In this document: piece after piece, positions 1,651 through 54,588 of the stretch
How positions within the stretch are numbered: position 1 is the first letter of the stretch
How the letters are laid out: every line of letters starts with the position of its first letter
IMG/VR virus record: IMGVR_UViG_3300034072_002231
Coordinates: 1 to 54,588 of that record
Direction: 5' to 3' (one strand)
Source: a virus
Taxonomy: Duplodnaviria > Caudoviricetes
Length of the DNA stretch: 54,588 nucleotides
Program-made: the position numbers and the translations under genes
Notes under the pieces: generated by a model
The model's input: only the letters and a program-made list of their open reading frames with translations
Told to the model about the DNA's origin: nothing
Databases searched by the model: none

Positions 1651-1968
1651 CTATTTTTTTTTACTTATAAAATTAGCCTTCAAAATTGAAAGCTTGTGCT
1701 CAATATCTTCTATTACAGCTAAACTATTCGGATATGTCATTTCAGTTTCAACTACTGAACTAATACCTTTTTCTTCTTTCTTAAACAAATGGTTAAAGTC
1801 CACGTCAGGATACGCCTGATAGAGCTTTAATAAAAACTCCATATTCGGGTTTCTACCGTTCAGGTACTGGCTCATGGAACTTTTACTGTATCCCATTTTT
1901 TCGGCAGCAGCTACCTGGCTTTCTCCTTTAGCTTTAAAAAATAATTTAAGCTTGTCGTGAAACTCCAT
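1651..1968 (-). CDS. XRE/HTH_3 family phage repressor
   Basis: SQVAAAEKMGYSKSSMSQYLNGRNP helix-turn-helix; divergent from early operon; no S24 autocleavage domain. Confidence 0.85.
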   Translation of the reverse strand: MEFHDKLKLFFKAKGESQVAAAEKMGYSKSSMSQYLNGRNPNMEFLLKLYQAYPDVDFNHLFKKEEKGISSVVETEMTYPNSLAVIEDIEHKLSILKANFISKKK

Positions 1969-10012: not shown

Positions 10013-10732
10013 TTATTTTTCGTGCCGATTAATAAATCCCGCTTCTTTAGAAGTTACTTTACCAGAAGCATATCCCTTAATTAGAGCAATTGTAAGCAAT
10101 ATTGAAATTAGTAAAGAGAAGATGATTGAATAGTCGGGTGCACAGTCTTTACATATATGATTTTGCAAAAATTCTGCAATTAGTCCAATCCACACTAAAA
10201 TTATTGCAATAGACATTAACTCATTAAGTTTAGATACTGAATAAATTGGAGTTTTCAGGCTATATACTGTCTTATACAAGGGACCGGTTATAAAGTCTTC
10301 TAAAGTGTCTATGTGCATTTCCCAATTTTCTTGCCACCTCTTACTTCCTTTAATATTTAACCACCATGTAATTGAGAATAAAAGCCCAAGTAATAACAAG
10401 TACAGATCTATATTTTTTGGCATTTTAATGCATGGGTCGGCAGTAATGACTGATATATATCCCCCAAATGTCAAAACTATAAATCCCCAAAAATATGTTG
10501 CCCGGGTCCAAAATTTATCTATTTCAAAGTTTCTTGTTTCCCATGCCTTTTCGTAAGCCAATTGTAGTTTATTTCTATGTTTCTTCTTGACAAAATATTT
10601 TTCTTTTTTTTCATCGTACTTAATTCCAAATCGCTCATAATATTGATTAGTATCTAATACTTTATAAGTATCCATTTTTCTCCAAAAATATTTATGGAAA
10701 ACTTCCTTGAAATACTCTTTTATTTTTTTCAT
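10013..10732 (-). CDS. Multi-pass membrane protein, RipA-family octameric membrane protein-like
   Basis: RNFEIDKFWTRATYFW, GSKRWQENWE and YSVSKLN motifs with four hydrophobic helices; family recalled from memory. Confidence 0.6.
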   Translation of the reverse strand: MKKIKEYFKEVFHKYFWRKMDTYKVLDTNQYYERFGIKYDEKKEKYFVKKKHRNKLQLAYEKAWETRNFEIDKFWTRATYFWGFIVLTFGGYISVITADPCIKMPKNIDLYLLLLGLLFSITWWLNIKGSKRWQENWEMHIDTLEDFITGPLYKTVYSLKTPIYSVSKLNELMSIAIILVWIGLIAEFLQNHICKDCAPDYSIIFSLLISILLTIALIKGYASGKVTSKEAGFINRHEK

Positions 10733-10831: not shown

Positions 10832-10839
10832 TAAGTTTG
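10832..10839 (+). promoter_or_regulatory. Bacteroidota sigma-70 -7 box
   Basis: TAAGTTTG immediately before leader RNA copy 1. Confidence 0.65.
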
Positions 10840-10842
10840 TAG

Positions 10843-11001
10843 TGCGAAATACCAATTTTACTTCTATGTTTTTTAAATTCTCACTAATAATATCCCACAG
10901 CAAGGAAGGGGTTTGGAGCCCTATCCCTCGAGTAAAATCTGGTGTTTCGCAGTCCTTGTTTGTGGGTCTTTTAAATTCACTAAGATTATGCGAAACACCA
11001 G
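10843..11001 (+). ncRNA. c4/CI-like antisense leader RNA, copy 1
   Basis: Site 1 TGCGAAATACCAATTTTACT (10843-62); antisense AGTAAAATCTGGTGTTTCGCA (10931-51) inside stem CCCACAGCAAGGA/TCCTTGTTTGTGGG (10894-906/10953-66); site 2 TGCGAAACACCAG (10989-11001) on the start codon. Confidence 0.7.
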
Positions 11002-11266
11002 TGAAAACAAAGTTACATCCGTTCAGGATGTGTTGCCGGCAATAGCAGCCTTATTGCAGCGGCACGACAAAGAAACATTTACAAATGCCCCGGCAGTAAT
11101 CAGGCAAATGTTTGACGACATTCTTGATACAGATTCCGGAGACAACATGCAGTACCGGCAGGAAATTCTCATTACCCTGCGCGCCATTACAGATTTAGGC
11201 ACAACACTGCAGCCCTTTCCACAGGAAATTATCTGGCAACTGCAAAACCCTCCCGCAAATGGATAG
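10988..11266 (+). CDS. Hypothetical protein A1 (paralog of 42938..43216)
   Basis: ATG start reassigned from paralog (MRNT...QDVLPA...QYR...DLGTTLQPF). Confidence 0.8.
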   Translation: MRNTSENKVTSVQDVLPAIAALLQRHDKETFTNAPAVIRQMFDDILDTDSGDNMQYRQEILITLRAITDLGTTLQPFPQEIIWQLQNPPANG

Positions 11267-11660
11267 CGTGGGCACAATTATCGTAATGTACCCCAATGGT
11301 ACAGCGGTAAGATATGAAAACAGCACCATAAGGTTTGCGGCCGCCCAGCTCATAGCAATGAATATGCCCGGAAACGAAGCTCCGCTCTACCTGCAGCGCG
11401 AAGGGTCAGAAAACAAAATATACTACCTGGAGAGTGCACTAAAGCGCTACATAAAAGGCGAAAGCAGCTATCAGGACACTATGGTAGCCCTGCTGTGCAA
11501 TGGCCTGTACCGCAACAAGGCCGACATTACCGTTAATGGCCACGAAATAGATGCCGGCAGCCTGTGGTTCCGCCACAACAATAAGCTCGTGCTGTGCAGC
11601 GCAGATGAGTATGCCTCCCTGCACCTGACCGGTAATGAAGATAAATTTACAGAGTTGTAA
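11259..11660 (+). CDS. Hypothetical protein B1 (paralog of 43227..43643)
   Basis: CNGLYRNKA and DAGSLW match CHGLYRNNA and DAHSLW in paralog; overlaps A1 stop. Confidence 0.8.
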   Translation: MDSVGTIIVMYPNGTAVRYENSTIRFAAAQLIAMNMPGNEAPLYLQREGSENKIYYLESALKRYIKGESSYQDTMVALLCNGLYRNKADITVNGHEIDAGSLWFRHNNKLVLCSADEYASLHLTGNEDKFTEL

Positions 11661-11665
11661 TAAGC

Positions 11666-11695
11666 AAAACTCCCCGCAATAGCGGGGAGTTTTTT
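11666..11695. terminator. Bidirectional terminator
   Basis: AAAACTCCCCGC AATA GCGGGGAGTTTTTT. Confidence 0.85.
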
Positions 11696-12578
11696 AATTA
11701 TCCCATATTTTTAGTTTTTTTAATTCCCAGTAAAATCCAATTTGGCATTCTTCAATTTCACATTCTCTACAGCGCATACAGTCGTAAAATGCTATATCGC
11801 ATCTTTTTGCCTTTGCCCCGCGAATATCAATTTGGCTTTGGTCATACCCTCTTGCTGCCGTGCCACATTTATTAATAGACTTGTCAAGGACAATAACCCC
11901 TCCTTGTGACTTCGAAATAGTATTGTTGCAGATATAAACATTGTTACCAAATGAAATCCCTCTATCATCAAGAACAATTTTATTATTTAATCCAATATCT
12001 ATTTTAGCATATACAATTACTGCATCATTCTTGTTTAAAGTCAGGTTTAATAATATGTCTCTAGCTTTCTCGCGAAGTATATATGAAGTACCGGATACTT
12101 CCACATCCCAAATATCAGACGTGTGAGAAAGTTCATTATCAATAATTGAAAATACTGTTTTTCCTTTCCTCTTAGCAATAAAATTAATCAGAAAATCATC
12201 ATTTTCAGTTTTCTTTAAAGTCATGTAGAGTTCACCTAAAAAATTACAGATAATGCTCGCGCCAGTAAATTCTGAAATTTCATTATTCCCTAATATAATT
12301 TTAAGTGGTTTAAGCATAAGTTCCTGTGAGGCGGTCCATCCTTTCGAGTCAAAATTTTTAATTTTATCAAGTAAAAACTGCTTGCTTAAACTTCCTTTGT
12401 GTAGCATTTCGTGATGGTTAGGGCACAGAGGTACAAGATTTTCTAATTTATGCTCTTTTACAATTGCATATTCCTCAATGTGATGTATTTGATAATGTGG
12501 AATACCACAAATCACACATTTAAATCCATACTTTTGGCGACACTGTCGCCTCATTTCGGCTGGAATGATTTCTCTCAT
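11694..12578 (-). CDS. HNH endonuclease with C-terminal extension
   Basis: CVICG...IHHI...NLVPLCPNHH. Confidence 0.85.
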   Translation of the reverse strand: MREIIPAEMRRQCRQKYGFKCVICGIPHYQIHHIEEYAIVKEHKLENLVPLCPNHHEMLHKGSLSKQFLLDKIKNFDSKGWTASQELMLKPLKIILGNNEISEFTGASIICNFLGELYMTLKKTENDDFLINFIAKRKGKTVFSIIDNELSHTSDIWDVEVSGTSYILREKARDILLNLTLNKNDAVIVYAKIDIGLNNKIVLDDRGISFGNNVYICNNTISKSQGGVIVLDKSINKCGTAARGYDQSQIDIRGAKAKRCDIAFYDCMRCRECEIEECQIGFYWELKKLKIWDN

Positions 12579-32487: not shown

Positions 32488-32670
32488 TCTGACGAAATCT
32501 GGTAAATTTTAAGAGGAGAATGAGTAAACAGAACCTGCGCTATAAATCCTATGGCGTGGGCTGTTACTTATTTTACTCTAAGGTCTTACCAGAGCCCGTC
32601 AGATAGGATATGTTAGCAGTACCCACGCTTTCTTCTTATCAACCAATTACTTCTTTGGGTCTGGGAAGAT
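32488..32670 (+). ncRNA. Structured leader RNA with internal antisense loop
   Basis: Stem GCGTGGG-CTGTTA / TAGCAG-TA-CCCACGC enclosing TTACCAGA, complementary to TCTGGTAA (32498-505) and imperfectly to TCTGGGAAG (32660-68). Confidence 0.5.
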
Positions 32671-32680
32671 ATAATCTCCA

Positions 32681-42781: not shown

Positions 42782-42789
42782 TATATTTG
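42782..42789 (+). promoter_or_regulatory. Bacteroidota sigma-70 -7 box
   Basis: TATATTTG immediately before leader RNA copy 2. Confidence 0.65.
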
Positions 42790-42792
42790 TAA

Positions 42793-42950
42793 TGCGAAAC
42801 ATAGTTGCCTGAAACTCTAAATCAGGGTAAATACTTTAATTAATAATATGGCGGAGTCCGGTAGCAGTAATGCCCGGAAAGTACTTCACTTAGGTGACTG
42901 TGTTTCGCAGCTCCGCCTCCATTAATTTATTCTTGTTATGCGAAACACAG
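42793..42950 (+). ncRNA. c4/CI-like antisense leader RNA, copy 2
   Basis: Site 1 TGCGAAACATAGTTGCCTG (42793-811); antisense TAGGTGACTGTGTTTCGCA (42891-909) inside stem GGCGGAG/CTCCGCC; site 2 TGCGAAACACAG (42939-50) on the start codon. Confidence 0.7.
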
Positions 42951-43216
42951 AAGTAAATGCAAAAGAAAACACATCTCCACAAGATGTAATTCCCGCCTTA
43001 GTGGCATTTTTAAACCGGTATGATATTACCGAAATTGCCACTACCTGCCCTGCCACAGTGCAGGAAATGTTTAACGACCTTATGTGCACAGAAGCTGCCG
43101 ATAGCGCCCAGTACCGCGAGCGCATGCGCTTTTCTCTGCTCATAATTGCCGACCTGGGCAATACCCTGCTGCCTTTTACAGATATAGATGCATCTGCCAT
43201 AAAACTGCCCGCATAG
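42938..43216 (+). CDS. Hypothetical protein A2 (paralog of 10988..11266)
   Basis: MRNT...QDVIPA...QYR...DLGNTLLPF. Confidence 0.8.
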   Translation: MRNTEVNAKENTSPQDVIPALVAFLNRYDITEIATTCPATVQEMFNDLMCTEAADSAQYRERMRFSLLIIADLGNTLLPFTDIDASAIKLPA

Positions 43217-43226
43217 CCCCTGCCCT

Positions 43227-43643
43227 ATGGATGCAAAGGCTACCGTTTCCGTACTGTTCCCCAAGAGCAGCGCGGTGCCCTACCACGAAGTTACAGTACT
43301 GGAAGTGGCAAAAACAATTATAGACATGAAGCTAACGCCCAAAACAGAGCCGCTGCTGCTAACTGTACAGGGGCAAAAAGAGCAGCTATACTACAACAGG
43401 TATATGTTTTGGCTGTATGCAAAGGGTAAAATAAGCTATGCCGACTTGCTGGCCTCGTGCTGGTGCCACGGGCTGTACCGCAACAATGCAGAGCTTGTTG
43501 GCCCCGCCGCCGAAACAGTAGATGCGCACAGCCTCTGGATGCTGCGCCACAACACACTTTTGCTTGTAGATGATAACAGGCACGTTACCCAAAGCTCGGC
43601 CACTATTGATGCGTTATTTTATAATGTAGAAAAAGTTCCGTAG
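43227..43643 (+). CDS. Hypothetical protein B2 (paralog of 11259..11660)
   Basis: CHGLYRNNA, DAHSLW. Confidence 0.8.
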   Translation: MDAKATVSVLFPKSSAVPYHEVTVLEVAKTIIDMKLTPKTEPLLLTVQGQKEQLYYNRYMFWLYAKGKISYADLLASCWCHGLYRNNAELVGPAAETVDAHSLWMLRHNTLLLVDDNRHVTQSSATIDALFYNVEKVP

Positions 43644-43741: not shown

Positions 43742-44500
43742 TTACGGTACTCTTTTATAAGTTGATAAAGTTGTTGTACCTTCAAAAGTATTTTCTAATA
43801 GTAGCTCCTCAGCAGTAATCTTTTTAATAGTGTAGGTAACTCCATTCCCTATCAATTGAGGGGACTGAAGCGTATAATTAAATGATGTAGTATTAAAGGT
43901 TCCAACATTATCAATGCATTCATCTAATACAGTTTGTTCAACAATACCGTTTGGTAAAAACTCAACAACTAAATAATATGCGCAACCACTGTTGTTTACC
44001 ATCCATACTTGCCCATTAAACTTTTCACTGTACAAATACCATTTGTTATATATCAGATCAAGGTCTATCTCCCCCACAGGTGCATCGTCATAGTTGCTTG
44101 TAAATGTACTATTGGTAAAAGTACCGTCTTCATTATCTATTTTAATAACAAGCTCATCTTCGGTAAGTGTAACAATCTCAACTGTACCAATCCCGCCTTC
44201 GCTTGTAGTGGTTATAATGTTACCATTGCGCGCTACAGTATATTCAAACGAAGTAAAATCTTCACAGTTGGTGTAGAACCTTGAATAGCTGGAACCGTTT
44301 TCATTATATTCCATATGGTCTTTGGCACAGGTAAATTTGTTCTCGTGCATTACTGTAACCCCGTTCGTTTCCATAGAAACAAAATACCATTTTTTAAAAA
44401 TGCTTACTTCAGATGATGATACGCTGTTGTTGTCGTCAGACGAGCAAGAGGCTAACACAAAGGTTACTAACGAAAGGATTAGTAATAATTTAGATTTCAT
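43742..44500 (-). CDS. Lipoprotein with two tandem lipocalin-like domains
   Basis: LAS-C lipobox; two repeats IFKKWYF...LTEDELVI and IYNKWYL...ITAEELLL. Confidence 0.75.
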   Translation of the reverse strand: MKSKLLLILSLVTFVLASCSSDDNNSVSSSEVSIFKKWYFVSMETNGVTVMHENKFTCAKDHMEYNENGSSYSRFYTNCEDFTSFEYTVARNGNIITTTSEGGIGTVEIVTLTEDELVIKIDNEDGTFTNSTFTSNYDDAPVGEIDLDLIYNKWYLYSEKFNGQVWMVNNSGCAYYLVVEFLPNGIVEQTVLDECIDNVGTFNTTSFNYTLQSPQLIGNGVTYTIKKITAEELLLENTFEGTTTLSTYKRVP

Positions 44501-53406: not shown

Positions 53407-54588
53407 CTAAAAGGTGTTGCTGTTCCTGAAAATTTCTTCATCCCTATCATAATGCTTGTTTGAAATATATTTTTCGGTTTGACGCAACTCGCTATGTCTT
53501 GCTTGCTTTTGAACTTTATAGCTTGGATGACCCTTATCTAATAATTCCGTAATTCCAGTATCTTTTAGTGAGTAAAATTGAAAATTGGGAGGCAATTTTA
53601 ACTTATTTCGTATTTTATCCCATTCATCAGTAATTTTTTTTGGCTGAAGTTGGTCATAACCTGGCTGATAATTATTTGCTGAAAACAAATACATATCCTG
53701 CGATGCATTCTTTACATGATTTACCAGCAAATATATCAAAGCAATAGGTATAGTTACTGTTGCTTCTTTTTTACTTTTTTTTGCAGTACTTGTTTTTACT
53801 ACTATCAGAGATTTAGCTAAACGTAGGTCAGATACTTTTAATTTCGTCAATTCAGTTCTTCTGATAAAGCAATAGAAAGTCGTCATGCACAAGCATAAGT
53901 AAGAGGGATTATATTCTTCCAAATGTTTTTTTATAAGATCTCTGTAGGCAACAGGTATAATAACTCTTATTTTCTCATTCTCTTCAATCCTTCTTATGCC
54001 TAGCGCAGGGTTTGCAGGTATATAGTCTCTATCCAAAAAGTAATTTCCAATGTTTATTAGAAATTGCAGATAATTATTATGAGTGGCAGGAGAGTTATCT
54101 CTTTCATAATATATATAATCTAAAAAATCTGTTGTAAACCTTCTGTTATAGTCAATTATGAACATTTTGAGTTTACCTTCATGAGCAAGATATTTTTTTA
54201 TGTTATTTACATAAGAAGTATAAGCTCTTTTTGTATCGGCCCTAATGGCATTATCAAACTCTCTTTTATTAATCTTATATATAAATTCATCTAGACAATC
54301 TTTAAAAAGGCTATATGATTTTCTGCTACTATTAACTAAGTAAGGATTCCATCCTTCAGCTAATTTGCGGTTTAAGTTGATAATTATATCATTTGCAAAC
54401 TTTAGCCTAGCTTTTTTATTCGACATAGGTTTTACTCGTTTTCTAACCCTAACCAGTTTTTCAGATGATACATCTTTCACGTAAAAAACTATACGCCATT
54501 CATCCTGAGAGCCACGCTGTAGTTCTGCTGGTACATAATCAACACCATTTATATAAATTTTTGTACTTGATTTTTGAGTAGAGGACAT
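53407..54588 (-). CDS. Tyrosine recombinase (phage integrase)
   Basis: FIRRTEL, YSLKDTG, QARHS, TEKY catalytic motifs; at prophage end. Confidence 0.93.
   Translation of the reverse strand: MSSTQKSSTKIYINGVDYVPAELQRGSQDEWRIVFYVKDVSSEKLVRVRKRVKPMSNKKARLKFANDIIINLNRKLAEGWNPYLVNSSRKSYSLFKDCLDEFIYKINKREFDNAIRADTKRAYTSYVNNIKKYLAHEGKLKMFIIDYNRRFTTDFLDYIYYERDNSPATHNNYLQFLINIGNYFLDRDYIPANPALGIRRIEENEKIRVIIPVAYRDLIKKHLEEYNPSYLCLCMTTFYCFIRRTELTKLKVSDLRLAKSLIVVKTSTAKKSKKEATVTIPIALIYLLVNHVKNASQDMYLFSANNYQPGYDQLQPKKITDEWDKIRNKLKLPPNFQFYSLKDTGITELLDKGHPSYKVQKQARHSELRQTEKYISNKHYDRDEEIFRNSNTF

Follow-up and report, generated by a model that had tools for sequence, protein, structure and literature searches.

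We analysed a window of 54,588 bases, which is a whole provirus record of IMG/VR (IMGVR_UViG_3300034072_002231) rated complete, and within it a short cassette, here termed copy 1, whose leader encodes a structured RNA and precedes two genes, A1 and B1. Behind a Bacteroidota-type -7 promoter box this leader presents three related segments: an upstream site (site 1), an antisense segment (the seed) held within the structured RNA, and a downstream site (site 2) that coincides with the start of A1 (Table 1). A sister module, copy 2, has the same layout but differs in the sequence of its stem and of its seed extension. On the comparative evidence presented here, copy 1 is a genuine RNA device of the c4/CI type that is under selection; it is a relative, in Bacteroidota, of the antisense immunity RNAs known from coliphages P1 and P4 rather than a wholly new kind of system.

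An earlier, sequence-only reading of this DNA had proposed the -7 box, site 1, the stem-enclosed region with its internal hairpin and the seed, and when we re-read the sequence each of these elements was found at the position that had been given for it. The pairing it described was borne out as well: the seed and site 1 of copy 1 form 20 pairs including one G-U, plus one bulged C, and positions 10939-10951 of the seed are perfectly complementary to 10989-11001 over 13 nucleotides (nt), starting from the second base of the A1 ATG. The same holds for the two coupled open reading frames (ORFs) and their terminator, since A1 and B1 overlap by 8 nt and a terminator is called at 11666-11697. Inverted repeats of at least 12 nt with arms within 130 nt number only 27 in the whole 54.6-kb window, and the seed/start-codon pairs of copies 1 and 2 are among the perfect repeats with 29-37 nt between the arms. 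Because such repeats are scarce and the three-site layout recurs with covariation in 38 distinct sequences, chance can be excluded as its source.

Table 1. Positions of the features of both modules and of other genes in the window.
Feature	Position	Strand	Remark
Copy 1: -7 promoter box TAAGTTTG, Bacteroidota-type	10832-10839	+	4 nt before the G of GCGAA in site 1
Copy 1: site 1, predicted transcript 5' end	10843-10862	+	complementary to seed
Copy 1: stem-enclosed structured RNA, ~73 nt	10894-10966	+	seed in single-stranded 3' part
Copy 1: closing stem	10894-10906 with 10953-10966	+	from fold
Copy 1: internal hairpin within closing stem	~10908-10921	+	
Copy 1: seed (antisense segment)	10931-10951	+	ends in core UGUUUCGCA, adjoining 3' arm of closing stem
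Copy 1: U-rich tract TCTTTT	10967-10972	+	directly 3' of closing stem; possible intrinsic terminator or small-RNA 3' end
Copy 1: site 2	10988-11001	+	A1 ATG plus next 11 nt
Gene A1, 92 amino acids	10988-11266	+	starts MRNT
Gene B1, 133 amino acids	11259-11660	+	8-nt overlap with A1
Intrinsic terminator closing the cassette	11666-11697	+	stem 11666-11693 plus T run
Copy 2: sister module	42782-43643	+	~32 kb from copy 1
Copy 2: -7 box	42782-42789	+	
Copy 2: site 1	42793-42812	+	
Copy 2: structured RNA	42850-42917	+	
Copy 2: seed	42890-42909	+	
Copy 2: ATG / site 2	42938-42950	+	
Gene A2	42938-43216	+	
Gene B2	43227-43643	+	
Helix-turn-helix repressor-like gene	1651-1968	-	
8xMP octameric membrane protein family gene	10013-10732	-	flanks copy 1 module
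HNH endonuclease gene	11694-12578	-	flanks copy 1 module
Lipocalin-like protein gene	43742-44500	-	after copy 2 module
Integrase	53407-54588	-	

Related loci were collected with a scan pattern consisting of the last 10 nt of the seed, a gap of 15-45 nt and the first 10 nt of the ORF, which forces the core in the seed and at the ATG and leaves site 1, the closing stem, the hairpin and the seed extension free. Matches were then sorted by eye according to the presence of a promoter box, an upstream GCGAA site and a closing stem. The full architecture was found in 15 of the 31 matches in viral contigs and in 28 of the 47 matches in contigs from one genome per species, together 43 loci, and the remaining 16 viral and 19 genome matches were coding-region or other chance matches. 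All 28 genome loci bear what we take to be Bacteroidota taxon names (two unfamiliar genera were checked, the others are familiar ones). Together with the two copies in the window, the 43 loci make 45 instances, 38 distinct sequences and 20 clusters of seed extension. Site 1 is present in 43/43 loci though absent from the search pattern, a figure that partly reflects selection since the site served as a sorting criterion, while site 2 lies over the translation start in 38/38 members, as the pattern required, and also in four relatives found without the pattern. A closing stem of 6-17 base pairs (bp) occurs in 38/38 members, and its sequence differs between clusters.

The position of the promoter bears on where the transcript would begin. 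With TAnnTTTG as the consensus of the Bacteroidota -7 box, 29 of the 38 members have a box with at least five of the six consensus matches, and in 27 of these 29 the spacing from the box to GCGAA is 4 nt. We placed the 5' end of the transcript by the usual distance of the transcription start from such a box, and with this spacing the transcript would be expected to open with site 1.

The same layout was also found in relatives that had been reached without the forced core, and these carry four other cores at all three sites. They comprise L081, found through its B protein; L168, found with a covariance model in a Pedobacter genome; the second copy of L027 (copy B); and Flavobacterium phage 1H, reached with B in a tblastn search. 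The covariance model also recovered the second copies of L062, L044 and L027. When our covariance model R1 (CM R1) was run against Bacteroidota genomes at E <= 0.01, 10 of the 151 genomes were matched and only the two matches in genome G002 show the architecture; by inspection, the other 10 matches (nine genomes) consist of the hairpin or of nothing, followed by a chance ATGCGAAACA-like start, and were discarded. A hairpin-only pattern returned 76 loci (62 distinct stretches) from the viral contigs, in none of which could a three-site leader be seen by eye, many being T-arm-like pieces of tRNAs or other RNAs, and blastn of a canonical leader against cultured phages gave no match. The scan pattern also matched intergenic arrays of a repeated motif, CTGCGAAACACTGCG, in three Hymenobacter contigs (L048, L068 and L071), where promoter box, closing stem and ORF logic are absent; these arrays look like a different repeated element that shares the core by chance.

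We then asked how closely the three segments follow one another. Across the 20 clusters the seed:site 1 duplex has a mean of -26.4 kcal/mol for cognate pairs versus -17.1 kcal/mol for non-cognate pairs, and the seed:site 2 duplex -23.5 versus -18.0 kcal/mol; in neither case did any of 10000 permutations reach the cognate value. The complementarity runs 10-20 nt past the core and is locus-specific there. Formal pair counts, made on a model-guided alignment of 41 members that leans towards structure, gave standard pairs in 86.3% of cells against 67.3% in shuffles and a covariation score of 0.455 against 0.141 in shuffles and 0.056-0.131 in slid controls. None of 500 shuffles reached the observed value on any of five measures, and 22 of the 27 pairs show changes on both sides. 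The seed:site 2 helix (helix 4 of the alignment) is 90.3% paired, with both-side changes in 9 of its 14 pairs, whereas the figures for the closing stem (76-81% paired) are underestimates because the alignment mis-registers part of that stem. Covariation among relatives, which the sequence-only reading had put forward as a check, thus came out in favour of the predicted pairing, and on these comparisons we regard functional pairing of the sites as close to certain. Moreover, among the 20 cluster representatives the non-Watson-Crick positions embedded in seed:site 1 helices are 7 G-U, 0 A-C and 2 others. The presence of G-U without A-C places the pairing in plus-strand RNA.

Further evidence comes from genomes with more than one module. 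The tandem copies of L027 are near-identical over much of their length, differing at 2/40 positions upstream and at 4/104 in the later coding sequence, but they differ at 8/22 positions in site 1, 7/24 in the seed and 7/21 in site 2. In the five genomes or contigs that carry two modules, the cognate seed:site 2 pairing is stronger than the cross pairing in 10 of 10 comparisons. At the level of sequence, the divergence in L027 and this consistent preference fit selection for separate addresses, and separate addresses matter only if the RNA acts in trans.

Folding of the leader showed how the two targets would compete. In the minimum-energy fold of the whole copy 1 leader the start codon is bound by the seed core, whereas in the centroid the seed binds site 1. 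The leader of copy 2 forms a 20-bp duplex of seed and site 1, leaving the start codon nearly free. In cis, site 1 and the start codon are thus rivals for the seed. The family consensus computed with RNAalifold selects the seed:site 2 helix, with compensatory changes at its outer pairs. Taken as an isolated molecule, the RNA of copy 2 folds better than its shuffles (z = -3.69; 0/200 shuffles as good), and CM R1 scores the RNA of copy 1 at 55.8 bits, copy 1 having been in the training set. The hairpin GCGGGTGNAAGTCCCGC of the large subfamily of leaders turns up outside them too (L082-L157, viral contigs): within phage tRNA arrays it forms the T-arm-like portion of tRNA genes, and it is present in a recurrent structured element adjoining 'gcaagcgtcaccgaaggcg'. 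Its loop resembles a T-loop. A tRNA-like or RNase P substrate shape is not claimed for the hairpin GGGUGNAAGUCCC, which adjoins the 5' arm, and not the 3' arm, of the closing stem.

Comparison of the sequences thus establishes the three sites, the fold, the strand on which they pair and selection for the pairing. For the way in which they are used, the reading towards which we lean is that of a sense-encoded antisense RNA of the c4/CI type that would be released, act in trans and block translation of A1. Transcription would start about 4 nt after the -7 box, making site 1 the very 5' end of the transcript, and the stem-enclosed RNA would present a single-stranded seed. As long as the transcript is full-length, the seed would pair in cis with site 1 and the A1 start codon would be free. 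Release of the structured RNA by termination at the U tract, by 5' processing or by both would free the seed, which could then act in trans, pairing with the A1 start codon and the codons next to it and blocking translation of A1, the overlapping B1 falling silent along with it. A and B would in this way be made briefly when the promoter first fires and be kept off thereafter for as long as the RNA is abundant, as would be the case in a lysogen. The sequence past the short core would serve as the address, so that each module answers its own RNA. Here it is the release of the small RNA, its action in trans and the timing that we infer. The kinds of cargo found behind the same leader elsewhere (SymE and AntA) need silencing, and we counted this in favour of a trans-acting RNA.

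The most serious competitor, which we nonetheless consider fairly unlikely, is a purely cis-acting two-state switch in which no free small RNA exists and the seed binds the 5' end of its own transcript, leaving the start codon open and A1 translated, or else binds the start codon (closed), the setting depending on folding order during transcription, 5'-end trimming, temperature or a bound factor. The alternative pairings are indeed close in energy in copy 1, as the disagreement between its minimum-energy and centroid folds illustrates, and site 1, as a mimic of site 2 slightly weakened by G-U pairs and a bulge, would be suited to tuning such an equilibrium. A switch of this kind gives no reason, however, why recent duplicates should change all three sites while the rest stays nearly identical, nor why co-resident modules should prefer their own partner in every comparison made. 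In addition, P1 c4 and P4 CI, which the leader resembles, act in trans, and the compact stem-closed fold with its U tract looks like a unit made to persist.

Several observations weigh against a released, trans-acting RNA of the c4 kind in copy 1, or narrow the base on which it stands. All of the pairing facts, covariation included, fit a cis-only switch equally well. The two modules of the window share an 11-nt core, and their cross pairing (-17.9 and -19.6 kcal/mol) comes near to the cognate pairing (-23.4 and -20.8 kcal/mol), so that the two may not be independent of each other. The isolated 81-nt RNA of copy 1 has a modest folding signal (z = -1.92; 6/200 shuffles as good). A stretch of four or more T that begins no more than 10 nt past the closing stem, although present in 26/38 members (TCTTTT in copy 1, none in copy 2), is found in only 9 of the 20 cluster representatives. 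The core common to most members was forced by the search pattern, and the family sample is therefore biased. The second SymE-type module of L044 (1787-1894, minus strand) has the seed and the start-codon site, but within 130 nt upstream neither a site 1 nor a promoter box could be recognised, and this module may be a variant without the upstream site. Finally, CM R1 misses the c4-2-type leaders of phage 1H (L170) and L081, and copy 1 itself gives no match to the Rfam models c4-2 or C4 at E <= 10, whether in 401 nt or in 91 nt; its homology to c4-2, discussed below, therefore rests on the sister copy, on shared B cargo and on shared layout.

Less probable still, in our judgement improbable, is transcription attenuation, whereby the closing stem and U tract would form an intrinsic terminator helped or hindered by seed:site 1 pairing, most transcripts would end ahead of A1, and pairing at the start codon would be secondary. 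The T runs just mentioned speak for it, as does the P4 CI RNA, which works by premature transcription termination. Their patchy distribution among the cluster representatives and absence from copy 2 speak against it, and the 'loop' that the closing stem encloses (42-60 nt) would be unusual for an intrinsic terminator. A simple terminator scan made no call at the closing stem and U tract of copy 1, owing to its loop limit of 3-8 nt. Moreover, attenuation alone does not account for a seed that follows the start codon and mirrors even synonymous changes of codons. We reject as highly improbable the notion that the three sites are DNA operators (direct, inverted, direct) for a phage or host DNA-binding protein without any RNA pairing: the overlap of site 1 with the predicted transcription start, a classical operator position, and the 9-nt core common to many loci would suit it, but that sharing is largely an effect of the search pattern, the core differs in relatives, changing at all three sites together, the complementarity is locus-specific for 10-20 nt beyond it, and the excess of G-U over A-C makes sense only for plus-strand RNA.

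We next compared the leader with catalogued RNAs. At gathering thresholds the whole window gave nothing against Rfam, and 18 related loci gave only a tRNA. The Rfam model c4-2 (RF02944, clan CL00128; gathering cut-off 41 bits) does match, at 49.4 bits and hence above the cut-off, the leader of a homologous A/B cassette in Flavobacterium phage 1H, where the match is followed by an A-like ORF and a B homologue and where the same three sites are present. In the window, c4-2 aligns over its whole length with copy 2 at 42846-42923 (27.0 bits, sub-threshold; E = 6.9e-4 in 181 nt), and it scores 30.1 bits against the leader of L081. No c4-2 match was obtained at E <= 10 for the canonical member L067, nor at E <= 1 for any of six further members (L054, L015, L009, L168, L158 and L066). 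The Rfam C4 model (RF01695) matched neither the window nor the 18 related loci at gathering threshold, nor the surroundings of either copy at E <= 10. Searching Rfam with Infernal, as the sequence-only reading had suggested, therefore supports kinship with c4-2 through phage 1H and, below threshold, copy 2, and gives nothing for copy 1 or for C4. Its description of the module as an undescribed system does not survive, given that the homologous cassette of phage 1H carries a catalogued RNA above cut-off and copy 2 a sub-threshold one. Its proposal of a P1 c4/P4 CI-like leader RNA pairing with one upstream site and with the start of the first gene, on the other hand, gains strong comparative support from the cognate pairing and the covariation.

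Like the family described here, c4-2 RNAs are located in phage leaders, measure about 80 nt, are closed by a stem and combine a hairpin on the 5' side with a 3' segment that varies, whereas copy 1 and the large subfamily with the GGGUGNAAGUCCC hairpin escape the c4-2 model. The copy 1 RNA is most likely a diverged relative of c4-2, and may belong to a branch beyond the reach of the Rfam model. The c4-2 motif was reported by Weinberg et al. 2017, NAR (PMC5737381), the main text of which gives no function, targets or three-site logic for it, and a table in Weinberg et al. 2010 (PMC2864571) assigns both C4 and c4-a1b1 to Proteobacteria and the phages of that group. In the literature that we searched (the c4-2 supplement aside) we found no description of the leader, of its three sites or of a link to SymE in Bacteroidota.

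Copy 1 has sequence features of a known functional class, the c4/CI-type antisense immunity RNAs, namely an antisense segment in sense orientation in the leader, complementary to an upstream and a downstream site, the latter over the A1 start. In the immI region of P1 and P7, the c4 antisense RNA controls icd-ant through sites a1 b1 upstream and a2 b2 at the icd start. In common with c4, the antisense RNA of copy 1 would be encoded in the sense orientation in the leader of the operon, with one upstream site and another where translation of the first gene begins; some members of the family have antirepressor cargo, and address-like specificity differs between related phages. Unlike c4, which uses two loops (a' and b'), the family has one contiguous seed, and its target is the start codon with the first codons rather than the ribosome-binding site. 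The host phylum is also a different one, Rfam C4 gives no match, and an A/B pair takes the place of icd-ant. The immunity leader of P4 comprises seqA, the CI RNA (seqB) and seqC, and both c4 and CI are processed by RNase P. As in P4, an upstream site, an antisense segment in a leader RNA (processed in P4) and a downstream site follow one another, with a terminator-like element directly after the RNA, but in the present family it is the start codon itself that serves as downstream site, and only about half of the clusters have a U tract. A third point of comparison is offered by the type I toxin-antitoxin pair SymE/SymR (PF08845): in E. coli, transcription of SymR runs across the start of symE on the other strand, and in L044 and L059 the translation start of a SymE-family toxin would likewise be covered by an antisense RNA. 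The antisense segment differs from SymR in lying upstream on the same strand and transcript, and the cargo in the window is not SymE.

The genes placed behind the leader vary. The ORF that follows always opens with the site 2 codons, and the proteins are otherwise unrelated between clusters. When ten first ORFs were scanned, two were SymE_toxin, two AntA antirepressors and six had no Pfam family. The SymE_toxin ORFs stand behind the leader in L044 and L059 and, judging by similarity, also in L061, L066, L074 and L076; one SymE module sits among ordinary chromosomal genes, outside any prophage. The sequence-only reading had guessed at antirepressors, toxins or anti-defence proteins for A and B, and the first two of these do occur behind the same leader in relatives, but A1 and B1 themselves match no toxin family. 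For A1 there was no Pfam, NCBIfam or PHROG match, for B1 no Pfam or NCBIfam match, and Atlas look-ups gave no usable lead on the function of either gene. A1 and A2 are identical at 37 of 80 aligned residues (46%), B1 and B2 at 40 of 121 (33%). The A genes of L081 and phage 1H can be aligned colinearly with A1, though weakly, and BLASTP gave no match between A1 and the phage 1H A gene.

Somewhat more could be learned about B1, which belongs to a family of proteins of about 130 amino acids with 142 cluster representatives at E <= 1e-3 and matches phrog_38077, a family of unknown function. Its homologues occur in eight Flavobacterium phage records (28% identity, E = 3e-8). Its structure model has a predicted local distance difference test score (pLDDT) of 94 and shows only weak SH3-like similarity, in the C-terminal half, with no PDB match at E <= 0.001. 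A word-index protein search with B1 returned B1 itself only, a search of genome and viral contigs with a B1+B2 alignment gave no confirmed relatives, and a search of Bacteroidota genomes for the B family found a match in one of the 401 sampled. The B homologue of phage 1H, gp06 (L170 1339-1890), is annotated from a start some 150 nt ahead of the ATG corresponding to that of B1, and in this form it overlaps the A-like gene; the annotation looks too long. This probably accounts for the match of B1 to phrog_38077 beginning only at profile position 54.

A wider proposal, which we put forward tentatively as a possibility rather than as a probable outcome, is that the module represents a large, uncatalogued, Bacteroidota-wide sister branch of the c4 clan. 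It would be a portable, address-coded RNA lock, composed of promoter, site 1, folded RNA and first codons, placed before unrelated harmful genes (phage antirepressors, chromosomal SymE toxins and the A/B pair), with new, mutually blind locks arising by coordinated three-site change after tandem duplication. Should the RNA act as proposed, a compact and reprogrammable lock would keep harmful genes silent in both the phages and the chromosomes of Bacteroidota. Bacteroidota do not use Shine-Dalgarno pairing, and the lock would need no Shine-Dalgarno sequence, acting on the start codon itself, which it would cover. Such a lock would also link the RNA immunity of phages (P1 c4, P4 CI) with type I toxin-antitoxin systems (SymE), two subjects that are usually treated apart. 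The abstract of PMC12390103 names Proteobacteria, Firmicutes and Tenericutes as the only groups in which type I systems have been found to date, and the passage of a preprint concerned with a SymE gene in a Bacteroides/Phocaeicola prophage notes that gene without an RNA partner; the chromosomal SymE modules would then be the first type I-like toxin-antitoxin systems of Bacteroidota, with an antitoxin RNA that is sense-encoded upstream. In practical terms, the natural set of orthogonal addresses could supply parts for controlling genes in Bacteroides and Flavobacterium, and annotation would have to take account of the fact that the Rfam c4-2 model misses most of these RNAs.

As regards its setting, copy 1 (10832-11695) is placed in an accessory region of the provirus, between the minus-strand 8xMP and HNH genes, and the cassette is best read, from its sequence context, as a self-contained accessory unit (a 'moron') of a temperate Bacteroidota phage. 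Oppositely oriented accessory genes flank both A/B modules, which behave like independent morons. A third self-antisense leader had been suggested at 32488-32680 of the window, upstream of insertion sequence (IS) cargo; its sequence is unrelated, and CM R1 gave no match there at E <= 0.01. Among the related loci, the second ORF of L007/L020 and of L015/L033 has two repeats of a motif around RLQAFQKFG and HLN..N..D, and its product looks like a protein of the HNH or homing-endonuclease type.

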